64,000 nt of DNA from Isurus oxyrinchus. Its lineage: Eukaryota. The stretch is from the NCBI GenBank assembly GCA_026770705.1, contig JANJGN010000009.1, positions 164,176,001-164,240,000 of the forward strand, given 5' to 3'. The notes below the pieces were generated by a model. It was not told where the DNA came from, did not search any database, and saw only the letters and a list, made by a program, of their open reading frames with translations. Of the stretch, positions 25,235-62,199 are shown in pieces. The position numbers and the translations under genes were made by a program. Every line of letters begins with the position of its first letter. Position 1 is the first letter of the stretch.

Positions 25235-25559
25235 GTAAGTGTTACTTTCTACAAACAATGTGGCGAATGAATGTTTTAAATTCATGTCTATCCAAACTGG
25301 TCACTGGTTCAGTTCCTTCAGTTTATCTGAGAAATTGCAACTGGCCAAATTCACTCTCTCTGGTTCCTCAAACATTCTGAACAAGGTCACTAAGTTGCAT
25401 TTTTCATGAAAAATGGACAGGATCAGAAAATATCCCCAAAACATGCAAAAATATTGCCGAATCTCCAATAAACCCATCGAATCAAAATAGCATTTGATTG
25501 ACAGAGCTTTCATAAAGCAATTTGTCTATTTCCAGCAGATGGAATTGTGAAATGCAACC

Positions 25560-33268: not shown

Positions 33269-36200
33269 TATTATGATGCAGCTGAGCTAAATGCTGAGCG
33301 GTTCAAATCCAGGAGGGAAACTTGAACCAACTGTCATAACTAACTGTTGCAATTTGTATGATTGAAGATGCAGGCTTTAAATTCAGTAGTAATAAGACGA
33401 CTGAGTCTCAACAGGTTTTTATAAAACTAAATTAAACATTTATTAATACAAGAAAGATTGTGAGCACATGCATATGTTGACAAAATTACTACTATAATGT
33501 CTACAAAAATCCCCTAATTAATCTGGCTCCAAGTTATACCTCCGTTAAGGCATCAGTAAAACACATGGATTTAAACAGACCCTGGGCAAAGCTCACTCTG
33601 GACGGTCACATTCAAATTGAGTTTCTTTCAGCTCTGGCTCTTTGCAGACAGCGGCTTGAGGCTTACGGACTGGAGGCTTTAGTTCTTAGAATCGCTCTCC
33701 TTTTTACCAACAGCCTTCTAATCCTTTTTACACATTTTTCTCTTTGAATGCAATTTTCATTCTACCACTATTTCTTTTGAAATTTTAACTCTTCAAATAA
33801 TAAGACACTTTCATACGACCCACTTTATTAGTAATCCTTGGGAAAAATAAACAAACACACAGTTTCTGAGCTTCACCTGGTTAGGTGTAATATTTCACAC
33901 CATCTCTGAACCCAAGGTAGGGGAGTTAGTTTAAAGAAAAAATGCAAATTGCCCCCATATTTACCTAATTAACATTTCAAACCTATCCTTTTCTATACAT
34001 CAAAGCCTCTAGACAAGCTGGCTTTAATCCAATTAGGACACACACACACACAGAGGGCAGGATTTTCCAAGCCCGCTGGCAGCAGGTGTAATAAGTGGCA
34101 TGTGTGGATAATATGGTGTGAGCTGCTTCACAATGGCAGCATGAAGGCAGGTTGTGATCGTCCGCTCAGCCCACCTACAGCGGGTCGTGCTTCCCGCTAT
34201 CGGTCAGCGGGGAGCTAATTGTTATACATCAGCATGTAAATAAAAGGCCATCCTGCCAGGCTCTTGGAACCCGGCCGTATCCTCTGTCCACGTTAGCGGG
34301 AAAGCACGCCGACGTGATTCACAACAGCACACAGGCAATTTGTACCTGGTGGCCTTGACTCTGGGGGAAATGGGGTGAGTGAGCAGCAGTGTTCTCCACA
34401 GCTTGCCTGTTGTTTACAGGCTTCAGGGATGCCTGACCCCGGATGTGACTGCTGAGAGGGGGGTCTCCGGGGGGGGTAAGAGCTGGCCAGCCTTGAAATG
34501 CTGAGGGCAAGGTGTCTAGTGGCAAGTGCTGGCTGCCTTGGAGGTGGATACTGAGGGGGAGATGTCCGGGGTCATGTGATGATCAACCTCAGAGGCGAAT
34601 GGTGTCGGTGGCTCCATGCTCAGGACCATCTCAGATGCAGCCATTAAACTTAAGACGCATCTGGTGCTGCGTCCTCCTTCAGTACCTCAGCCCTTTCAGG
34701 AGCTGGTGCGCAGTATCACTGGTCACAGATGCTGGTGTGATGGGGGTCAGCCCCACCTTAAAGATGCTGAGAGCTCACAGAGAGAATGAGAGAACTCTGT
34801 GGGGCCTGCCCACTCCATTCTGGCAGCAATGCCCAGCACCGCCGAGGTGCGGGCATCAGTAATGTGTCCAGGGAGTGTGAGGCTGGACCATCACTGTTAT
34901 CTGAAGGTTGCACAGAGCACAGGGAAAAGGCCCTGGACTCATACACCTGCCCTTTATCTTACACAGGAAGGTTTCACATCTGAGTGACAAGAACACTGCT
35001 CATCAGAACAAGGAGCCACAGGCAGGGTGACATTCTTAGGAGTTTACCGACAATAGTGAACAATATGTACATGTGACCAACACCCGTACCCAGGCTGTGC
35101 AACTACATTTCCCTAACTTTCCTAACTCTGCCACTACATCTTGCTGCTCCCCGGACATCCACAGCAGAGGTGGAGCTAACCTGCTGCATGTGACGCCCTG
35201 TCTGTGATGACACTGGTGGGCGTCCTCTGGAGGGCTGAGACTTGGTGGGCCCCGGCCTGCTTTCGGGGTCCTGCTGTGTGGTAGTGGCCCCCTCCTCGGC
35301 CTGGGGGGCTGGAGCTGCTGAGATCCTAGGAAGAGGGGAGTCGGGTTGGCCAGTCACTCCCAGAACCTCCTGAGTCGATGGCCCCGGAGTGTGTACCTGC
35401 TGCTCCTCCTCCCTATCGGTGTCTGAGGGCCCCTGGCTGACTCTGAGAGCGGAGGATGTAGCTGGAGTGAGACTTAGCTAATTGTAACCCCTCTCTCATA
35501 CACACTGTTGGAGGCTAAATATAGCATCAGCGATGGAGTTCACAGTGCACAGCAGCACAGGAGTGACGTCCTGGGCCAAGGTCTCCATGGCAGCTGCCAT
35601 CCTGCCATTGTTGACCTCAGTGTATTGCAGCGCCGGAGTTATCACATCAGCCTGAAGATAGACAGTCCCCTCCATCATGCCTTGCAATCTGAGGAGTGCA
35701 GCGGGCATCCCTTCCTGATGTTCCCGAGCTTGCCTTTGCAATTCCAGTAACTGTGACATGACCGAGCCCAGAGGCTGTCATCTGACTCGGACTCAGCAAC
35801 ATTGTGGCCTCCAGCATCCTCTGAGGGGCAGGGGACCTGGGAAGTCCCTGCCTCCACCTGCTGTAGATCAAACAGTGCGATGTGCTCCCAGATTGTGATC
35901 CTCAGGCTACTCTAAAGCTAGGTCCCACTGAGGTGTGTGTCTCTGCGCTGGCAGAGGCTGTGGGTGAGCTCTGTGACGGAACTTCAGGGAGAGTGCCTTC
36001 AGATTCCTCTTCAGAGGTTTCTTCAGGAGACCCTGGGTCATGGACTCTGTCGGCTGCTTCCCAGATGTGTCTGTGAAAGCAAGGGGAGATAATGAGTGCA
36101 TGGCAGTGGCCTGTGATAAAGGACACATCACTCACAGCATGGTTATCTGATGGGTGTTGCACTGCTGGACCCTCACTTGATAGGGCAGTGCCAACCTTAC

Positions 36201-37139
36201 CATCAGCACAGGACCGGCCCCGATCATTGCCGGTCAGCTGGATGGCTCTGCTTTCGAATTCTGTCAGAACTTTGATCTCCGGCATCCCTCCACCTGTCTC
36301 TGACCTTTCCCCCCTGTTGTGTGCCAGTTTGTCCTGTGTGGATATGGATGGGGACAGTGTGTCAGGATGCCTGCAGGGGACAGATGATAAGTATGCCTGG
36401 CCTGTGTGGGTGGGGAGTGGTCCCGTGGACAGGGTGAGAACAATGAAGGTGTATGTGAACAGGTGAATGGTGATGTCCCTTGCACTGGCAGTGAGTGAGG
36501 GCCCTGTAGATGTGTGATGGGTTTGTGAAAAGAGTGACTTACCCTGGAGGAACGGAGGAGATCATTCATCCTTTTGCGGTACTGGGTGACTGTCCTCCTC
36601 TGCAGGACGTTCACACTGACCACCGCTGCCTCCACCTCCCAAGCCGGGTTGGGTACTTTGCTGCCCACCCTGCGGTCAGAGCGTGGGGTAGAGCACATGC
36701 CTGTGCCCCTCCACGGCATCCAGCAGTCGCTTGAGGGACCCATCAATGAAGCAGGGGTCTGCAGTCTTTTTTCCCTCTGCTGGCCATGTCTCCCAGGCAG
36801 GGGTGGTGAGCTGGTGGCGATGAGCGCTTTGATGGTAGCTGCCTTTTAAAGATGGTGGCCAGCGTGTTGTAACAGCGGGGTGATGGTGCGTGGGCGAATG
36901 AGAGCCCGCTTGCCATGGAAACGGTGTGTTTCACGGGGGTGAATAAATAATGAGCCGGGTTCGGGATGATATGGTGTGAAAACCCGTCATCTTCGTCGGC
37001 AGGTAGGACTCCATTTTACCCACCCGCTACCGCACTTAGTGCAATTCTGGGAAAATTCTGCCCACAGGTACAGACACCACTAAACTCTCATTTAAAATAA
37101 TTTCCAATAACATTATAAACATTAATATAACGCTTCACA
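33269..37139. mobile_element. Solo-LTR-like element, paralog of 2425-6294
   Basis: Duplicated sequence with the same CTTCA flanks. Confidence 0.5.
34055..37063 (-). mobile_element. Harbinger Myb/SANT element, paralog of 3211-6218
   Basis: Same TIRs and ORF fragments. Confidence 0.8.
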
Positions 37140-50273: not shown

Positions 50274-53200
50274 AAAAAACAAAAATACAAACAAAAAACT
50301 GCGGATGCTGGAAATCCAAAACAAAAAGTAAGAAATACCTGGAAAAACTCAGCAGGTCTGGCAGCATCGGCGGAGAAGAGCACAGTTGATGTTTCGAGTC
50401 CTGATGACCCTTCAACAGAACTAAGTAAAAAGAAGAGAGGGGTGAAATATAAGCTTGTCTAAGGGGTGGGGGTGGGGGTGCGGGTGGTGAGAGAAGGGGA
50501 GAGGTGGTTGTTGGGACAAGCAAGCAGTGATAGGAGGAGATAACCAAAAGATGTCACAGACAAAAGAACAAAGAGGTGTTGAAGGTGGTGATATTATCTA
50601 AAAGAATGTGGTAATTAAGAACGTATAGCAAGACAAGCAAGGTACAGATAGGTCATGTGGGGGTGGGGTGAAATAAGACTAAAAGGGCATAAAATGTATA
50701 GATAAATGATCAGTGGAATACATTAAAAATATTGCAAATAGGTGGGAAAAGAAAAATCTATATAAATTATTGGAAAAAAGAAAAAGGATGGGGAAGAAAT
50801 GGAAAGAGGGTGGGGATGGAGGAGGGAGTTCAAGATCTAAAATTGTTGATCTCAATATTCAGTCCGGAAGGCTATAAGGTGCCTAGTCGGAAGATGAGGT
50901 GCTGTTCCTCCAGTTTGCGTTGAGCTTCACTGGAACATTGCAGCAAGCCAAGGACAGACATGTGGGCAAGAGAGCAGGGTGGAGTGTTAAAATGGCAAGC
51001 GACAGGGAGGTTTGGGTCATTCTCTGCAGACAGACCGCAGGTGTTCTGCAAAACAATCACCCAGTCTGCATTTGGTCTTTCCAATGTAGAGGAAACTGCA
51101 TTGGGAGCAACGAATGCAGTAGACTAAGTTGGGGGAAATGCAAGCGAAATGCTGCTTCACTTGAAAGGAGCGTTTGGGCCCTTGGACGGTGAGGAGAGAG
51201 GAATTGAAGGGGCAGGTGTTGCACCTTTTGCGTGGGCATGGGGAGTTGCCATAGGTGGGGGTTGAGGAGTAGAGGGTGATGGAGGAGTGGACCAGAGTGT
51301 CCCAGAGGGAACGATCCCTATGGAATGCCACCGGGGGGGTGAAAGGAAGATGTGTTTGGTGGTGGCATCATGCTGGAGTTGGCGGAAATGGTGGAGGATG
51401 ATCCTTTGAATGTGGAGGCTGGTGGGGTGATAAGTGAGGACAAGGGGGACCCTATCATGTTTCTGGGAGGGAGGAGAAGGCGTGAGGGTGGATGCGCGGT
51501 AGATGGGCCGGACACGGTTGAGAGCCCTGTCAACGACCGTGGGTGGAAAACCTCAGTTAAGGAAGAAGGAGGACATCTCAGAGGAACTGTTTTTGAAGGT
51601 AGCATCATCGGAACAGATGCGACGGAGGCAAAGGAACTGGGAGAATGGGAAAGTGTCCTTACAGGAAGCGGGGTGTGAGGAGCTGTAGTCGAGGTAGCTG
51701 TGGGAGTCGGTAGGCTTGTAATGGATATTGGTGGACAGTCTATCACCAGAGATTGAGACACAGAGGTCAAGGAAGGGAAGGGAAGTGTCAGAGATGGACC
51801 ATTTGAAAATGATGGAGGGGTGGAGATTGGAAGCAAAATTAATAAATTTTTCCAGGTCCAAACGAGAGCATGAAGCGGCACCGAAGTAATCATCAATGTA
51901 CCGGAGAAAGAGTTGTGGGAGTGGGCCGGAATAGGACTGGAACAAGGAATGTTCCACATACCCCATAAAGGGACAGGGGCTCATGTGGGTACCCTTAGTC
52001 ACACCTTTTATTTGGAGGAAGTGAGAGGAGTTGAAGGAGAAATTGTTCAGCGTGAGAACAAGTTCAGCCAGATGGAGGAGAGTAGTGGTGGATGGGGATT
52101 GTTCGGGCCTCTGTTCGAGGAAAAAGCTAAGGGCCCTCAGACCATCCTGGTGGGGGATGGAGGTGTAGAGGGATTGGACGTCCATGGTGAAGAGGAAACA
52201 GTTGGGGGCAGGGAACTGGAAATTGTTGATGTGACGTAAGGTGTCAGAGGAATCACGGATGTAGGTGGGAAGGGACTGGACAAGGGCAGAGAAAAAGGAT
52301 TCAAGATAACGAGAAATGAGTTCCGTGGGGCAGGAACAGGCTGACACGATCAGTCTGCCGGGACAGTTCTGTTTGTGGATTTTGGGTAGGAGGTAGAAGC
52401 GGGCCGTCCGAGGTTGGGCGACTATCAGGTTGGAAGCTGTGGGAGGAAGATCCCCAGAGGGGATGAGGTCAGTGACAGTCCTGGAAACAATGGCTTGATG
52501 TTCAGTGATGGGGTCATGGTCCATGGAGAGGTCAGAGGAAGTGTCTGCGAATTGACGCTCAGCCTCTGTGAGGTAGAGGCCAGTGCGCCAGACAACAACA
52601 GCACCACCCTTGACAGCGGGTTTGATGACAATGTTGGGGTTGGATCTGAGGGAACGGAGTGCAGTAAGTCACAAAACAACTGTTTGCTGAAATGCTAAAC
52701 AAAGATAAATATTGAGATAAAAGCAAAGAACTGCGGATGCTGGAAATGCAAACCAAAGACAGAAATAGAAATATCTGGAAAAACTCAGCAGGTCTGGCAG
52801 CATCGGTAGAGAAGAGCACAGTTGATGTTTCGAGTCCTCATGACCCTTCAACAGAACTAAGTAACAATAGGAAAGGGGTGAAATATAAGCTGGTTTAAGA
52901 GGAAGGTGGGTGCGTTGTTGGGACAAGAAGCCAGTAATAGGTGGAGATAACCAAAAGATGTCACAGACAAAAGAACAAAGAGGTGTTGAAGGTGGTGATA
53001 TTTTCTAAAGGAATGTGCTAATTAAGGGTAGAAAGCAGGACAAACAAGGTACAGATAGACCTAGTGGGGGTGGGGTGGGGTGAAGGAATACTAAAAATTC
53101 TAAAAATTAGAGATTAACAGTGGATGGAAATACATTTAAAAATAATGGAAATAGTTGGGAAAAGAAAACTCTATATAAACTATTGGAAAAAACAAAAAGT

Positions 53201-55705
53201 GGAGGAAGAAACGGAAAGGGGATGGAGATGGCGGTTGGGGCCAGGGAACTGGAAATTGTTGATGTGACATAAGGTGTCAGAGGAATCACGGATGTAGGTG
53301 GGAAGGGACTGGACAAGGGGAGAGCGAAGGGAGTCAAGAAGAGAATTGAGTTCCGTGGGGCAGGAAGAGGCTGACACGATCAGTCTGCCGGGACAGTCCT
53401 GTTTGTGGATTTTGGGTAGGAGGTAGAAGCGGGCTGTCCGAGGTTGGGAGACTATCAGGTTGGAAGCTGTGGGAGGAAGATCTCCAGAGGAGATGAGGTC
53501 AGTGACAGATCTGGAAACAATGGCTTGATGTTCAGTGGTGGGGTCATGGTCCAGGGAGAGGTAGGAGGAAGTGTCTGCGAGTTGACGCTCAGCCTCCACA
53601 AGGTAGACGTCAGTGCGCCAGACAACAACTGCACCACCCTTGTCAGCGGGTTTGATGGCAATGTTGGGGTTAGGCCTGAGAGAATGGAGTGCAGTATGTT
53701 CAGAGAGAGACAGGTTAGAATGGGTGAGAGGAGCAGAGAAATTGAGACGACTAATGTCACGCCGACAGTTCTCAATGAAAAGATCAAGAGAAGGTAAGAA
53801 TCCAGAGGGAGGGGTCCAGGTGGAGGGAGAATATTGGAGGTGGGTAAAAGGATCCGTTGAATGGGGAGAGGACTCCTGCCCAAAGAAGTGAGCCCGGAGA
53901 CGAAGACGGTGGAAGAAGAGTTCAGCATCATGCCGAGCCCGAAATTCATTGAGGTGAGGACGTAAGGATATGAAACTAAGTCCTTTGCTGAGCACTGAAC
54001 GTTCAGCATCAGAGAGGGGAAGGTCAGGGTGTATAGTGAATACCCGACCGGGGCTGGGATTGGAAGATGGGGTGGGGACAGAGGGACAGGCAGGGTTGGA
54101 GGGTCCTGGATGTGTGTTGGTATCACTGAGTTGTTGCAGCTTGCGTTCCTTAGCACTTGAGAGAAAGAGAAAAGGTTTCTTGTTGAGGCGACGGATGAGA
54201 CGAAGAATAGAATGAAACTGGGGGCACGGGCAGCTTTGGAAAGGGGTACGGCGATGCTGCTGGAGGGAGAGGTCGAATGTGTTCATATGGCAGCGCATGG
54301 CACTGAGTGTGGATCTCAGAATGCAACGGGAACAGTATTCCGAGGAATGTTGTATGTCCCAGAGATACCTGTAATCCTGGGTTGGTTCGAATCCGATGGA
54401 ATTTCAGTTGAGATCCACATGGGGTAAGTCGGAGACGGAGACAGTCACTGAGAAAGGAAATATGGCTGTGAAAGCGGGTTTTAGTAAACACCTTGTCAAA
54501 CACCAGGAGAGAAATGGAAAGCAATGAAGGTAAATAAGGCAAAAGAGAGATATGAAAATCCTGACGGAGAGTAGTACAAAACTTCTTTAAGGTAGGGATG
54601 TCTTGAAGAGAAGTGGCAGTCAATTAAACACGGATAAAAGCAAAAAACTGCGGATGCTGGAAATTCAAAACAAAAACAGAAACATAAATAGCTGGAAAAA
54701 CTCAGCAGGTCTGGCAGCATCAGCGGAAAGAGCACAGTTGATGTTTCGAGTCCTCATGACCCATCAACAGAACTAAGTAAAAATAGGAGAGGGGTGAAAT
54801 ATAAGCTGGTCTAAGGGGTGGGGGTGGGTGGTGGTGGAGGGAGAAGTTGTTGGGACAAGCAAGCAGTGATAGGAGGAGATAACCAAAAGATGTCACAGAC
54901 AAATGAACAAAGAGGTGTTGAAGGTGGCGATATTATCCAAAAGATTGTGCTAATTAAGGATGGGTAGCAGGACAAGCAAGGTACATGGTGGCATCATGCT
55001 GCAGTTGGAGGCGGAAATGGCGAAGAATGATCCTTTAGTGCGGAGGCTGGTGGAGTGATAAGTGAGGACAAGGGAGACCTCTTCATGTTTCTGGTAGACT
55101 TGCTGCCTTCTTCCAGTGAAGCTCAATGCAAACCGGAGGAACAGCACGTCATCTTCCGACTAGGCACTTTAGAGCCATTGGGACTGAATATTAAGTTCAA
55201 CAATTTTAGATCATAAACTCCCTCCTCCATCCCCACCCCCTTTCTGTTTCTTCCCCCTCCTTTTTCCTTTTTCCAATACTTTATATAGATTTTTCTTTTC
55301 CCACCTATTTCCATTATTTTTAATGTATTCCACCGATCATTTATCTATACCTTTTAAGCCCTTTAAGTCTTATTTCACCCCACCCTCCACTAGAGCTATC
55401 TGTACCTTGATTGTCCTGCTATCCATTCTTAATTAGCACATTCTTTTAGATGATGTCACCACATTCAACACCTCTTTGTTCTTTTGTCTGTGACATCTTT
55501 GGGTTATCGCCTCCTATCACCGCTTGCTTGTCCCAACAACTACCGCCGACTTCTCTCTCCACCGCCCCCCCCGCCCCCCGACCCATTAGACCAGCTTATA
55601 TTTCACCCCTTTCCTATTTTTACTTCGTTCTGTTGAAGGGTCATAAGGACTCTAAATGTCAACTGTGCTCTTCTCTGCCGATGCTGCCAGACCTGCTGAG
55701 TTTTT
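50274..55705 (-). mobile_element. Penelope-like retroelement array (RT plus GIY-YIG endonuclease) with tandem and inverted pseudo-LTRs; present only in copy B
   Basis: RT FTMDVQSLYTSIPH..FLRYIDD (51553-52524, and N-terminal part 53180-54298); GIY-YIG NLVYCIRC...LYIGKTK.RLGDCFAEH (50872-51331); four pLTR copies; candidate TSD CCAGGTTGG(A/G)GAGT at 50260 and 55706. Confidence 0.93.
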
Positions 55706-56086
55706 CCAGGTTGGGGAGTTCTGGGTGAGGGTTTGAAGGAGCCAGCCTGTATCCTTTAAAGCTGCTCCCAAAATCACACAACCCAGGAACGCAGTTGGGA
55801 ATCCCAGAATTAGGACACACCCGCCATTTTTAAAGGGCTCCTGAATCAACCCAAGTTGGTGAAATCCAGGCGGTCACTTTGGTCTGAAGGCTGCACAAAG
55901 CACAGGGTAGAGGTCCTGGACTGAGACACCTGCCTTTATCTTGTACAGAAAGTGTTCACATGTGAGTGACATGAACATTGCTCATCAAAACAAGGAGCGA
56001 TAGGCAGGGAGACATTCTTTGGAGTTTATTGACAATAATGAACAGTATGTACAAGTGATTAACACCCGTGCCCAGGACGTGCAACT

Positions 56087-56225
56087 GGCCTAAATAGCCA
56101 AGTGGTTATGGTACTGGGTTTGTAACCCCAAGATCAGGAATTCAAATCTCACAATGGCAAAATATGAAACAATGTAACTTGATCTGAATAGGAACAGATG
56201 GAAATGTGTTTGTACTCAAAAGAGT
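56087..56225 (+). mobile_element. tRNA-headed (Thr-TGT-like) short SINE or tRNA pseudogene
   Basis: A box TAGCCAAGTGG, anticodon arm tggg-tttgtaa-ccc with TGT in the loop, B-box-like GAATTCAAATC; acceptor stem does not pair well; followed by a tail ending AAAAGAG. Confidence 0.7.
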
Positions 56226-56239
56226 TACATTTCCTCAAC

Positions 56240-56426
56240 TCTCGACGCCTTCCGTGCTCAGTGGGGACTGGGGTGCTTTATTGACCCCTTTTAGCACTTT
56301 TTGGTTTAAAGTTGTAAGTTTCCTTTAAACTTCGTTCTTGGTTTTACAGCTGACCTAAATTAGGGGCTGTCCCTTATTTATCCTAATTTTGTAAATTTAG
56401 TTTAATTGTTTTGACTCTATAAGAGT
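56240..56426 (+). mobile_element. Tx1-type 3' end, stacked unit 2
   Basis: Similar to 57063-57259; bounded by target repeats at 56226 and 56427. Confidence 0.85.
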
Positions 56427-56440
56427 TACATCTCCTCAAC

Positions 56441-57259
56441 CCCCGTAATATGAGCCGCCTCGGGGACATGTCCTCTGTGCCATTTGGCACAGCAAAGAGG
56501 AGCTTTTTGTATGGACTGCTGCTGCACATCTTCCATTTTCTCGCCCTTGTCCGCCGCCTGGATATGCCCTGGCATGCCTTGTTGCCTTCCGGCAGCGGAG
56601 GCCCCCGATGGGAGGCCCTCTGAGGAGGTGTCCTCCCCCTTTCTATTGGGGACCTGGGTTCGAGGGTGTTGCATGCAGCAGTCCCCTATAATAGGAGAAT
56701 TCATAGGTTCACGGACTCCCAAGACACATGCCCTTTTCGTGGTCTTGTGGAGTCCGTGGACCATGCATACATAGGGTGTGGTAGGTTGCACTCCCTTTTC
56801 AGTTACTTGATGAACCTTTTGTTAATGTTTTGTTTGCACTTCAGCCCCACGCTCCTGATCTATGGACACCCGGTGCGGAAGGGGGTCGGAAAGGAGGAGG
56901 ACCTCCTCGTGAACCTGCTCCTGGGCCTGGCCAAGTTGGCCATTAACAGGTCCAGGCAGCAGGCGATCGAAGGGGGAGTCCCGCCCAATTATTTATCCCT
57001 CTTCCGCGGCTACGGTCGCAGCCGGATGTCCCTGGAAAGGGAGCATGCGGTGTCTGCCGGCACTCTCGAACCCTTCCGTGCTCGGTGGGCACCGCGGGGA
57101 CTGGGGTGTTTTGTTGACCTCTTTTATCACATTTTGGTTTAAAGTTGTAAGTTTCCTTCAAACTTTGTTCTTGGTTTTACAGCTGACCTGAATTAGGGGC
57201 TGTGCCTGATTTATCCCAATTTTGTTAATTTAGTTTAATTGCTTTGACTCTATAAGAGT
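56441..57259 (+). mobile_element. Tx1-clade non-LTR retrotransposon, ORF2 C-terminal fragment plus 3' UTR, stacked unit 3
   Basis: LSIGDLGSRVLHAA..TCPFRGLVESVDHAYIGC..LLLGLAKLAI (decayed CCHC knuckle and L1/Tx1 C-terminus), ORF 56666-57142. Confidence 0.85.
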
Positions 57260-57273
57260 TACATCTCCTCAAC

Positions 57274-57470
57274 TCTCGAGACCTTCTGTGCTCGATGGGT
57301 GACCACGGGGGTTGGGGTGCTTTATCCAGCCTCTTAATCACATTTTGGTTTGATGTTGTAAGTTTCCTTTAAATCATGTCTTTGGTTTTGCAGTGACCCT
57401 AACTTAGGGGCTGCGTTTTATTTTGTTCCTCATTTTGTTAATTTAGTTTATTTGTTTGGCTTTAAAAGAG
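57274..57470 (+). mobile_element. Tx1-type 3' end, stacked unit 4 (closest to 20020-20236)
   Basis: Shares diagnostic sequence with the copy A insertion; bounded by target repeats at 57260 and 57472. Confidence 0.85.
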
Positions 57471-59016
57471 CTACATCTTCTCAACTTTCCTAATCCTCCC
57501 GCTACATCTTGGTGCTCCGCAGACATCCAGAGTGGAAGTAAAGACAGTCTGCTGACTGCTATGCTCTGTCTGTGATAATTTTGGCGGGCGTCCTCTGGAG
57601 GCCTGAGGCCTGGAGGGCCCCGGCTTCCTTTCGAGGTCCTGCTGTGTGGCATTAGCACCCTCCTTGGCCTGTGGACCTAGAGCTGTCAAGGTCACAGTAA
57701 GAGGGGAGTTACCAGGATGAATGGCCCCGGAGGGTACACATGTTGATCCTTCTCGCTATTGGCTGAATTAGCGAGCAGCAGGGGTAGCTGGAGTGAGATT
57801 GAGCTGCCCGCACCCCTCTCTCATACACACTGTCAGGGGCCAACTATACATCAGCAATGGAGTTCAGCCCCACAGCAGTGTAGGAACGGTGCCCTGGACC
57901 AACATCTCCAAGGCACCTACGATCCTACCAGTGTTGACCTTGGTGCATTGACATGCCAGCGCTATCACCTCAGAGTGCAGGTGGATGGATTCCTCCATAT
58001 TAACTGAAAATTTTATTTAAAAAGAGAGAAGGTCACCATCTAATCCTTTATTAACTGTGTTTAATTGTATGCAGTGGTAGCATTAAATAGATGTCTTCAG
58101 GTCTGGGCCTTGTACACACTGTCTCCTGGGAGTTCTGACCAGCTACCCTGCTGTCTTCAGGGAGATCTGGCCAACCATCCTGCTGTGTTCTGGGAGATCT
58201 AAGCAGCTACCCCCTCACATAGGCTTCAGTATTCCCTTAAATGTGTTTCTTCTCTTTCATCTCTCTTTGTTGCAACCAGTCTGAAAAGAAATGCTTTTCT
58301 TCAAAGGATTGATTAAATCAATCTTTACCTCTTAGACTTGTAAAAACAAACTTACTCTATGTTTATGTCACGTCCTTACACCTTTTTACAACCTGCATAT
58401 ATCTCCCTTTGAACTAAAACAACACAATTCAAACTATTTCTGTTATTGCTTCATGTACAAATCTGTTGTAGTTCTTTTTTGTTTATTAACATATCAAAAC
58501 CACTCCAAATTGTTGACTTTTGACCCTATCCACTGATGAGGCAGTCCATGTCATGGAACCATAACCTTAAATCTGGAGATAGGCTCGTCAGGGATGTCAG
58601 GAATCACTTCTTCACGCAAAGTATAGCGGAAATCAGGAACACTCTCCTCAAAAAAGCTCTTGAACTTAAATGAAAATTTCAAAACTGATTGACAGATTTT
58701 ATCTGGTAGCAATATTCGGGTTATGGGACCCCGGTAGGTAAATGGACAGAAGATACTGGTCAGTTGGGATTTAATTGAATTGTGGAACAGGCTGAAGGGG
58801 CTGCATGTCCGAATCCCTTTTCCATGTTCTGGAGCCCCAGTTAATTTTTCAGTGGTCTGGGCCTTGTGAGGAACAATGTGCTGTGAAACAAGCTCACAAA
58901 CAGTTAGCATTTCAAAGAGACACTTTCCAATCACCAGGCAAACTGTGACCTGTGTTGTTTCAGAGTACAGTTTGTGACAGTGAAAGCAGTGAAGGCCTGC
59001 CAAACCTCATTAAAAT

Positions 59017-59156: not shown

Positions 59157-60627
59157 CTCATTAAAATGTTGGTGAAAGTGTCACTTTTCTCTGGCTAATC
59201 CCTTGACCAAAGAGGGAATTTTAATTCCCCTCCCCCATCCTGCATCGTGTTGAGGCATGATGGGATTTGCTGGATCCAGAACCTTCTCCAGCACGGCTTG
59301 TGATCCAGGAGACACACGAAAGCTTCGCCCCCCCACCCCCAGGCAAATGTTTTATACAATTTCTCCCTCCCCATGATTGGCCAATCCTGCCCCAAGCAGC
59401 AAAGTCACCCTGACTCCCTCCTCGCTGTTGTGCTCCGAGGCAACATTCCCACCAATTTCCAAACTTTTACCATAACCTTCCTACTTGGAAACCAGCCAAA
59501 CATTCAATCAGTGTGCAAGAATTCTGGTGAGATTTTGCTGTTAAATTCGGCACAAACTCAACATTCCTGGTATTTCCAGCTTTCTCACCACCCCACACAC
59601 AGTCCCCCCTCTCGTCTCCACGTACCAGGGTTGAAGTGTTCTATCGCAGCATGCAGAGAACCAGAGCCAATCACATTTACATTCTTATCCAAAGCTACAA
59701 AACATGTAACCGATATCTGACAACATTTTGCCCTCATTTTACCCTTTGCTTTTCTAAGATTCTCTCCAACCAATTCACATTCAACTCACAAACAATGAAG
59801 TAGCATTGGAGGCTCACTACCAGCTACGAAGAGATATTGTTCACCATCATATTCATGTTAACATACTCTCAGTATCATAGCTGCTGTTCTGATCTGGAGA
59901 CCTGATATGTTCTGATATAATGGCTGAAAGGGTAACTCAGGCCTCTAAGAGGATGGAGAGATATGGGGATGGATTTTTAAAAAGTATGGTGTCAGGATTA
60001 GAGATGGGTGGGTGTGAAATTTGACACCGCTGGTCTCCATGCCAATTTACTGTTACAATCCCAAGCCCGAAACATTTAGAAAGCAGGCGGCTTGCAGTCA
60101 AGTGGTGGGCAGCTAACTTAGGAAATAACATTTACCAAAGGGGCCAATTAAAGACCCATTCCTGCGCCCACTGGGATTTCATTCAGCAATGCAAGCAGAC
60201 CACATTACCCCTTCAGGATCATGGCCCGGCAGCTGCCGGGTTTTGAAACATAAAATAAACTTACCTGGACTTTCCCCTTGCTGTCTCCATGCTCAGGTCA
60301 GCAACTCCCACCTCACCTGGTGAGGCCCTCTAGCATCAGGAGCCCGCCCTCTGTCCCTGATTGGAAGGTGAGCCAGTTCCAGTCTTTTGATTGGCAAGAA
60401 CATTGAAAATTGCAGTGGGCATGCCTAAAGAATGGTGAATGGTGTCAGGACCTGAAACAATCTCCCATGTCCAGTTCCCAAACCCAAATTTAACATCCAC
60501 CCCATAGAGTGGTAGATGTGTTGGTGAGATTCCAACATGGCAGAGCCTGGCTGAGATGAAGTGCAAAGTTTGAAGAGTATTTGATTATTAAATGTTCAGT
60601 ATCTGAATGTTTCTTTCTTTCCAACAG

Positions 60628-60957
60628 AACCCGTGTCTGTTCCTGTGCTTAGATTTTCATCACCAGCAAATGTCTCATGTTCTGGGGGTTCAGTGTCCGT
60701 CTCCTGTGAGTCTGTCCAGGGATCCCTTCCCATTCAGTACACATGGTATGAAAAGAACCTGTCTGAAGATTCAAAGATCTCTGACACCAATAAACTGGAT
60801 CTACATTGTCAATCCTTCAAACAGCAACATCATCAACATTACTGCACAGCCTCGAATAATCAGGGAGTAAAATCCAGTGACACTGTCACTGTTAACTCAA
60901 CACTCATGAATGTAACAACGAAAAGCTACAGTTATGTGATACAAATTGGAAATATTG
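60628..60957 (+). CDS. CD300/pIgR-like receptor copy B, exon 3 (Ig C2-like domain)
   Basis: Paralog of 24905-25234 with intact frame and splice sites. Confidence 0.95.
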
Positions 60958-62199
60958 GTAAGTGTTACTTTCTACAAACAACGTGGCGAATGAATGTTTT
61001 AAATTCATGTCTATCCAAACTGGTCACTGTTTCAGTTCCTTCAGTTTATCTGAGAAATTGCAACTGGCCAAATTCACTCTCTCTGGTTCCTCAAACATTC
61101 TGAACAAGGTCACTAAGTTGCATTTTTCATGAAAAATGGACAGGATCAGAAAATATCCCCAAAACATGCAAAAATATTGCCGAATCTCCAATAAACCCAT
61201 CGAATCAAAATAGCATTTGATTGACAGAGCTTTCATAAAGCAATTTGTCTATTTCCAGCAGATGGAATTGTGAAATGCAACCTCCAACTGTTGTGTCCTA
61301 GTTTGGGAAGGATATCACTGATAGAATAGAGAAGAATTGAATTAAAATGAACCCTTGGATGAGAGGTTTTAGTCATGAGGAAAGTATCATCACAACTGAG
61401 GTGAATGACCAGCTGGAGGACGTGGAAATTGTTAGAAATTTGGATAAGGTAACTCTAACTATTTCCACTAGTCAGTGAGTCAGCAACAAGAGAGCATTAA
61501 CTTTAAAATTATCACTAAAAGGACAAAGGGAGAAATTTGGAGAATTTTATTGATGCAAACTGTTTTTAGGACATGGAATGCCCAACTGAAATAAGTTTAC
61601 AAACAAATTTAATAATAGATTTTAAAAGGGAAACAAATGTATGAGGGTGTGGGAAAAGGACAATGAAATGGAATTAAATGAGGAGATCATTCAGAGAACC
61701 AGCATTCGAGTGATGGGCTGAATTCCCTCCCCTGTGTTGTAAAAATTCCATCATTCCAGTCAAAATCTCAAATTATCCTGTATAAAAAATTAACTATTCG
61801 CTCCCCATAAAACAATGACCCTGGTTCTGAAACAAGGATGACTTTAGCCTATTTGAATGTAGCGGTTCAATTTTCTGCAGAGTGGGTGCAGCATGTTCAC
61901 CGAGAAACACCAACATGGGCACAAAACAAAGAGAATCACATTTTCACCTGAGCAGCAGGAGACAGGAATTTACATATGCAAATATATTGACTCTGGTCAT
62001 GTGGTCTCTTGCCTCAGTCGTCAGGGAAGAAGGGTGGAATTTTACACCCCCATTGCGGCAGGGACTGGGCTGTAAAATGCAGCCAGCCATTCTAAACTCC
62101 ATGCACTCCAGCAGGACCATAAAATCCCACTGTCACAAGGCTCAGACCAAAGGCTGTCAGCAGCAGGTAGAAATTACACCTGTAAACTGTGTTTGTACT

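Follow-up and report, generated by a model that had tools for sequence, protein, structure and literature searches.

Four insertions at one site of a Harbinger-like element

In the window, the whole stretch of 64,000 nt from Isurus oxyrinchus that was analysed, a Harbinger-like element at 55874-57973 is split at a single site by four insertions. From 5′ to 3′ these are a SINE, a short older Tx1 tail, a longer Tx1 with the C-terminus of ORF2 and the oldest Tx1 tail, each followed by one copy of TACATYTYCTCAAC (Table 1). The window SINE ends in ACTCAAAAGAGT, followed by TACATTTCCTCAAC, and the same 14-mer comes next after each of the Tx1 ends, GACTCTATAAGAGT at 56426 and 57259 and GGCTTTAAAAGAGC at 57471. 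The ORF2 C-terminus (56624-57142) shows 90% amino-acid identity to intact 1303-aa ORF2 copies. Since a paralog at 19794-21364 holds the oldest Tx1 tail only and the site is empty in the host copies at 3212-6220 and 34056-37065, the stack would have grown by later insertions on its 5′ side. With nine further copies on this contig, which are segmental duplicates and have identical flanks, there are ten identical copies on C9. No 5′ target copy precedes the SINE, as had been observed originally, and this is real but ordinary: it is missing at about 23 of 48 host-site SINE junctions judged by eye, four of which break at the same GTGCAACT.

Table 1. Coordinates of the host element and of the units stacked in it, as positions in the window
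Feature	Position	Strand	Evidence or remark
Whole host element, empty target site at ~4258-4272, inverted ends GGGCAG...CTGCCC, broken Myb/SANT-like ORF on minus strand	3210..6220	+	Second copy at 34056-37065
Host part upstream of target site, ends GTGCAACT	55874..56086	+	84.6% to host copy 3212-6220, positions 834-1047; aligned to empty and paralogous sites
SINE copy, family positions 4-143, youngest (5′-most) of stack, no 5′ target copy	56086..56225	+	95.7% to copy L013; absent from paralog 19794-21364
tRNA-like head: A box TAGCCAAGTGG at 56095-56105, TGT anticodon at 56121-56123, mutated B box at 56140-56148	56088..56159	+	Rfam tRNA 19.4 bits; box motifs; A at 56140 against G in the family B box GTTCAAATC
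Internal ATCA-class site (family ATCAAGAGTTCA), joining point of youngest Tx1 and repeated SINE tails	56133..56144	+	Junctions; loose ends at 56133 in runs X4 and X15
Terminal hairpin ACTC-AAAA-GAGT, common to older Tx1 ends	56214..56225	+	Stem counts over SINE and Tx1 ends
Target copy 1 (TACATTTCCTCAAC)	56226..56239	+	Sequence comparison
Short 5′-truncated older Tx1 tail, ends GACTCTATAAGAGT	56240..56426	+	83% to Tx1 reference 6948-7127
Target copy 2	56427..56440	+	
5′-truncated older Tx1 with ORF2 C-terminus (56624-57142), ends GACTCTATAAGAGT	56441..57259	+	92% to Tx1 reference
Target copy 3	57260..57273	+	
Oldest Tx1 tail, ends GGCTTTAAAAGAGC	57274..57471	+	77% to Tx1 reference; also in paralog at 20020-20237, 95.6% identical
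Target copy 4, then host resumes to at least 57973	57472..57485	+	

The host is read as a non-autonomous, Harbinger-like element. Its ends are inverted, and CAG flanks the window copy on both sides if the ends are read as WGGGCAG (by eye, in one copy). The Myb/SANT-like ORF gave a match to PF13837 below the cut-off (E 0.0024) in one of the four copies scanned, and its frame matches Myb exons lying beside DDE_Tnp_4 in two of 30 DDE_Tnp_4-bearing loci (tblastx, E 1e-8 and 4e-5). Pfam found no DDE_Tnp_4 transposase in the scanned parts of the window host copy and no matches in the frameshifted host frames. The genome as a whole holds 73,235 candidate matches to this Harbinger-type transposase.

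The window also contains Ig-domain exons (V-set, Ig_2/Ig_3) at 48990-49493, 24862-25380 and 60585-61103, inside a segmentally duplicated unit of ~31 kb, so that the stack would ride in an expanded immune-receptor-like gene array. Another RT-bearing repeat, unrelated to Tx1, is present at 50300-55710 in several copies and both orientations (RVT_1 fragment at 51553-52668), and at 7500-9200 and 38340-39800 a 27-nt unit is repeated in tandem, with long open frames in the two strands.

The SINE family and its Tx1 partner

The SINE family is 143 nt long and starts with GCTTGGCC, 4 nt upstream of the start noted originally. Exact pattern searches, whose counts are lower bounds, returned 17,918 heads genome-wide, 19,567 3′ ends followed by TA and 9,417 followed by ATCA, with zero matches for the reversed-pattern controls. 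Both A and B boxes are present in the family by motif check, and the SINE itself has no run of four T, and some adjoining linkers end in T-runs. The window head scores 19.4 bits against the Rfam tRNA model (E 0.85; cut-off 29) and six other copies from five loci score 23.7-32.5 bits, two of them above the cut-off; across the window and the SINE copies of 60 loci, ARAGORN called no tRNA. Judged from these scores, the head is tRNA-like only. The Rfam scan of the SINE returned tRNA matches only, with no U1/U2 head, and poly(A) is absent, hence the family is not SINEU.

Of 108 complete SINE-ended clusters, 43 were assigned a target site duplication (TSD), 12-17 nt in length. A single TSD can enclose an array of as many as 34 units, the number seen at L220 (C1 11.48 Mb) between one 14-nt pair. 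Contigs from runs under three organism labels, sharing at most 10% of their words, contain both SINE and Tx1, and one contig of organism C spans the junction of Tx1 end and SINE tail; these contigs, whose RNA nature is guessed and which speak to presence only, are slender grounds for holding that more than one genome has the arrangement.

A search from the ORF2 fragment led to many copies with an open 1303-aa frame (150 of 14,343 candidates were scored). The element has an ORF1 of 714 aa and an ORF2 of 1303 aa; Pfam gives APE and RT domains in ORF2, with zf-CCHC, the knuckle expected in ORF1, below the cut-off, and ORF2 is 49% identical to the Xenopus Tx1 149 kDa protein over 99% of its length. 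By these features the partner is a LINE of the Tx1 clade. Older Tx1 copies end in AACTCRAAAGAGT and variants, and the last 12 nt are those of the SINE. One older-end pattern gave 341 matches; all 40 loci fetched continue with TAC/TAT and 23 of the 40 lie in the host site. No intact ORF2 was found among these 40 older-type loci.

The shared end can fold into a hairpin with the consensus ACTC-NAAA-GAGT in both SINE and older Tx1. A terminal stem of at least 4 bp was counted in 574 of 595 SINE ends, in 111 of 123 ends binned as older Tx1 (a bin that includes a few AAAGATT ends) and in 0 of 111 youngest Tx1 ends, against a background of 9.6%. In the oldest Tx1 tail a swap of G-C for A-T preserves the stem. 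Tandem Tx1 of different subfamilies (L044, L120, L174, L087, L197 and, in the window, 56240 and 57274) often share their 5′ truncation point, which suggests that the 5′ end of a new copy anneals to the resident one.

The original prediction holds in part. A tRNA-headed SINE unit with A and B boxes and a TGT anticodon loop had been described, and these features are present, with the length corrected to that of the 143-nt family, the B box mutated in this copy and the head tRNA-like. The end said to be shared with Tx1 is equal to that of older Tx1 over the last 12 nt, with the same 14-mer next. The proposed partnership with Tx1 is supported by tens of thousands of dispersed copies with TSDs, the common last 12 nt and hairpin, the TACA class of sites described below and the stacking with Tx1 at one site.

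Target classes, SINE tails and composite junctions

The SINE sample comprised all clusters behind the first 100 matches of the 3′-end plus TA pattern on contig C1, 0-14.9 Mb (locus L215 is not represented, and two clusters extend past the edge of the fetched sequence). In it, 8 of 53 clusters (15%) lie in the Harbinger-like host site. Of the separately fetched loci, 16 of 40 of the youngest Tx1 with its tail and the above 23 of 40 of older Tx1 are in that site. The exact 13-mer comes directly after 1,206 of the 19,567 SINE ends genome-wide; of the first 30 loci with it, several of them from one cluster, 29 do lie in the host. Against a background of 3 empty host sites and 5,870 TACA words in 723 kb, the enrichment of the SINE at the host site is roughly 300-fold. 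By the working rule of Kojima, as given in the portion of PMC4494074 drawn on here, target specificity requires more than 20% of flanks of one type, and the SINE falls below it at 15% while older Tx1 (23/40) lies above. To call the SINE target-specific, as had been done, is too strong, with 45 of the 53 position-sampled clusters outside the Harbinger-like host. The genome-wide count and flank comparison proposed with it returned many copies and a strongly enriched host site, although most flanks are not the Harbinger target; most copies thus sit outside the host, one half of the outcome that was to refute the reading, yet at non-random sites, which start with TACA or TATA. The three layers of Harbinger host, Tx1 and SINE are real, with a specificity that is weak and a pattern that follows SINEU/Tx1-Mar.

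The sites fall into two classes according to the element end. Without selection by pattern, the 3′ flank begins with TAC/TAT in 51 of 57 SINE-ended clusters and in 32 of 32 older Tx1, and with ATC/ATT in 13 of 13 bare youngest Tx1. Ends in AGAGT or AGAGC are followed by TA in 106 of 106 cases and ends in AGATT by AT in 117 of 121, both counts being in part selected by the pattern; for a G-marked SINE tail, unselected, ATC comes next in 105 of 113. Two AAAGATT ends in one tandem locus (L244-L259) are followed by TACA. That locus (C1 28.19-28.21 Mb) strings together older Tx1 fragments, whose 3′ ends are intermediate, in one long tandem run. A C at positions -4 and -1 is common to both site classes. 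The SINE target is the C^TACA class, shared with older Tx1 copies.

The endonucleases of two TACA-class copies, both decayed, are 95% and 92% identical to that of the youngest Tx1, and the beta-hairpin loop, whose role is taken from PMC1950540, is unchanged. With an endonuclease that hardly differs between the TACA and ATCA lineages, the target is likely picked by the RNA end, and the simplest reading would be one enzyme together with pairing of RNA read-through bases with the nick. Precedents are available, in the parts of the texts cited, for a 4-nt read-through that pairs with the target in R2Ol (PMC6795142), for stem-loop binding by ORF2 (PMC4176376) and for serial template jumping (10.1101/2021.04.30.442027).

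The original prediction missed a lineage, the youngest Tx1, which lies at a site within this SINE and has the SINE 3′ half attached. Twenty intact copies were fetched, and every one has the end ...AAAGATT and then the SINE internal site ATCAAGAGTTCA, after which come SINE positions 51-143 in 17 copies and the next Tx1 in three. Genome-wide there are 2,614 AAAGATT ends and 1,944 exact SINE-tail junctions, and 82 of the first 100 ends match the junction; for the exceptions 17 regions were fetched, and 12 of them have a bare end in a unique ATC/ATT site, where a clean TSD of 13-15 nt is frequent. At the other extremity, the SINE site opens all 27 full-length youngest Tx1 copies, and what is left of the host 14-mer comes next; one full-length older Tx1 starts directly with the host 14-mer. 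The bare youngest end has no terminal stem (0/111), and the SINE tail provides one 93 nt further on. The youngest Tx1 is sited in the SINE, is without a hairpin of its own and mostly carries SINE 51-143. Since the shared 93-nt stretch contains the tRNA T arm, it passed from the SINE to the LINE. Bare youngest ends, about one in five, have been copied without the hairpin, which argues that it is not strictly required.

Of 80 5′ junctions of truncated youngest copies, 64 belong to copies with the tail and 16 to bare ones. The tail-bearing copies stand after a SINE 3′ end and linker (36), after a 3′-cut SINE (17), directly after genomic flank (6) or after another Tx1 (5), and in none of the 64 does a SINE head ending at the B box precede them; among the bare copies, 10 of 16 join genomic flank directly. 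SINE sequence thus lies before 53 of 64 tail-bearing copies and 4 of 16 bare ones (p 2e-5), an asymmetry that is without account in the model put forward below. Perfect 15-nt TSDs surround a truncated Tx1 with its SINE tail and no SINE head at L167 and L168, so that Tx1 and tail can move as one unit. The same SINE-linker-Tx1 joint is found at different places in L163/L164 and in L160/L161, which indicates that composites are also copied again. A 5-nt insert is seen in 11 of 74 tails behind the youngest Tx1 and in 32 of 214 free SINEs. Capture of a single master tail is ruled out, given that the tails are as diverse as free SINEs, and tail swapping must be assumed; plain repeated insertion into SINEs with a TSD is likewise absent in the 64 truncated copies.

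Linkers ending in at least three T occur at 15 of 39 junctions from SINE to truncated Tx1, against 9 of 173 from SINE to SINE (p 3e-7; background 2.5%), and 24 of 35 linkers are foreign to the local flank. Four of 60 scanned loci have a tRNA gene in or beside a SINE array, and in two of them (Lys and Val) the T-run trailer abuts the SINE 5′ end. The tRNA-Lys, -Val, -Met and -Asp with genomic trailers lie at L039 1289-1362, L152 716-788, L053 1686-1757 and L218 3589-3662, and a partial one at L029. The tRNAs in the arrays are probably captured pre-tRNAs, and the linker and tRNA junctions look like jumps onto Pol III transcripts. A direct test of the pairing between RNA and nicked DNA compared the two TSD copies and gave a weak result: the 3′ copy is the one nearer to the consensus 10 times and the 5′ copy 3 times, with only about six of the 10 clean (p 0.05 to 0.25).

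Mechanism, rival explanations and known systems

Taken together, we consider it probable that the tRNA-headed SINE is copied by the Tx1 enzyme by means of the shared hairpin and the C^TACA site, and that the youngest, hairpin-less Tx1 uses the 3′ 93 nt of the SINE as its tail. As the junctions suggest, Pol III would transcribe the SINE and read into the flank up to a T-run, and the Tx1 ORF2p may bind the ACUC-NAAA-GAGU hairpin of the transcript. ORF2p would then nick at the loose consensus C(A)NC^WWCA, the sites of which are observed, and give rise to duplications of 12-17 nt. The first RNA bases downstream of the element end could pair with the nicked DNA, so that a lineage would re-use the site class of its source; end and class are correlated in the data, and pairing is the cause that we propose. 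The TACA class, at its best in the Harbinger-like 14-mer, would serve the SINE and older Tx1, and the ATCA class, at its best in the SINE B box, the youngest Tx1 and the G-marked SINE variant. A single founder Tx1 with AAAGATT would have landed in the ATCA site of a SINE, leaving descendants that begin with ATCAAGAGTTCA and mostly end with SINE 51-143. Jumps of the reverse transcriptase between RNAs may account for the head-to-tail arrays within one duplication, the swapping of SINE tails and the capture of pre-tRNAs. The model expects RNA 5′ ends at the ATCAAGAG site.

More tentatively, and as a possibility that we raise without favouring it, the LINE, an autonomous element, may have lost its own RT recognition hairpin and come to rely largely on the tail of its own SINE parasite, with target choice inherited through the target bases at the RNA 3′ end and not through the endonuclease, such that one mis-insertion could found a lineage with a new target.

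The main rival is repeated targeting with repair by SINE RNA, whereby the youngest Tx1 would enter the SINE B-box site each time, what looks like a tail would be the half of the target SINE that lies downstream, and a jump to SINE RNA annealing to the old head would repair the 5′ end. It would account for the SINE sequence before tail-bearing copies, and it agrees with the bare youngest end lying always at ATC/ATT, with the six of 27 full-length copies that stand directly behind a SINE head, with four truncated copies behind heads cut at positions 36-49 and with tails that mirror the SINE population. However, none of the 64 truncated copies shows a head with its duplication, genomic flank directly adjoins 10 of 16 bare copies, and L167 and L168 are without any head. 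In addition, the linked head variant lies upstream of insert-bearing tails in 0 of 5 cases where half would be expected (p 0.03, in a small test), and on the whole we hold this explanation to be unlikely.

A division of labour between two enzymes, in which an older TACA-cutting Tx1 protein would copy all hairpin RNAs in trans, including the youngest Tx1 by way of its SINE tail, and the youngest protein would cut ATCA, seems to us more doubtful still. The near-perfect prediction of site class from end type (106/106 and 117/121, in part selected) could be explained by it, as could the asymmetry in jumps to SINE RNA, but there is no fixed endonuclease difference between the classes, the loop being identical, and the identity of TACA-site units to the youngest reference reaches 99%. 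Nor was an intact ORF2 present in the 40 older-type loci fetched, although with 150 of 14,343 candidates scored an intact older copy may be missed. Finally, the unit in the window could have arisen only once, as a processed tRNA or as a chimera from a template switch, or hitch-hiking on a DNA transposon or segmental duplication could have spread the family. The ten identical C9 copies are indeed segmental duplicates with the same flanks, but exact copies number ~18,000-20,000, spread over many contigs at unrelated sites and with TSDs of their own, and the paralog is without the unit. Both a single-copy tRNA pseudogene and hitch-hiking are therefore rejected for the family, and we give them practically no credence.

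Returning to copying of the SINE by the Tx1 enzyme, what is new is the reciprocal nesting of LINE and SINE and the linkage of element ends to target classes, which we observe as structure and from which we infer the mechanism. In the textbook account a LINE is the source of the SINE 3′ end; here 3′ ends appear to be passed in both directions within one family, and young copies with intact ORFs make the idea testable. How sequence-specific retrotransposons switch targets is an open question, and a switch is usually ascribed to a change of the endonuclease. One family here offers two target classes, nearly the same endonuclease and thousands of junctions, and if a 4-nt RNA trailer sets the class, this would bear on the evolution of targeting and on the steering of retrotransposon-based gene insertion. 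Our literature search, which lay outside Repbase, Dfam and SINEBase, found neither this SINE family, for which a name may exist already, nor a LINE whose tail derives from a SINE described; the term Tx1 is absent from the main text of PMC13343379, and the abstract and introduction of PMC7265360 contribute nothing on read-through.

In regards to known systems, for which parts of the sources cited were available, the closest is that of the crocodilian SINEU-1/2/3 and Tx1-Mar in Mariner-N4_AMi (Kojima 2015, PMC4494074). There too a SINE and a Tx1 share a preferred site in a DNA transposon, with tandem insertions around the TSD, and the preference is graded, at 90%, 23% and 13% in SINEU, with the 15% found here being near SINEU-2 (13%) and not SINEU-3 (90%). 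Unlike SINEU, which has a U1/U2 head, the present SINE has a tRNA head with Pol III boxes and no poly(A), and its 3′ end is common to the LINE, whereas the corresponding text reports that none was found to be shared for SINEU-1. The host is also different, being Harbinger-like, and here the LINE lies within the SINE and has the SINE tail. As in Tx1-9_AMi, which targets Harbinger (PMC4494074), and in Xenopus Tx1L in Tx1D, a Tx1 ORF2 prefers one site of a DNA transposon; the text on those elements speaks of no SINE partner, and here one lineage has changed its target class with the endonuclease visibly unchanged.

The shared 3′ end forms a stem-loop as in HE1/HER1 of sharks, UnaSINE/UnaL2 and ZfL2 (PMC3747384, PMC4176376, both in part). 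In those stringent pairs the partners named are of CR1, L2, RTE or I type, while here the partner is a Tx1 and the part shared with older Tx1 is only about 12-18 nt, and, unlike in them, the youngest Tx1 has received its shared 93 nt from the SINE, tRNA T arm included. Similarly to R2, as far as the cited parts of PMC6795142 and 10.1101/2021.04.30.442027 describe it, target-derived bases at the RNA 3′ end would guide priming, and jumps would occur end to end between RNAs. In contrast to R2, the enzyme is APE-type and of loose specificity, and the pairing would set the target class instead of refining one fixed site.
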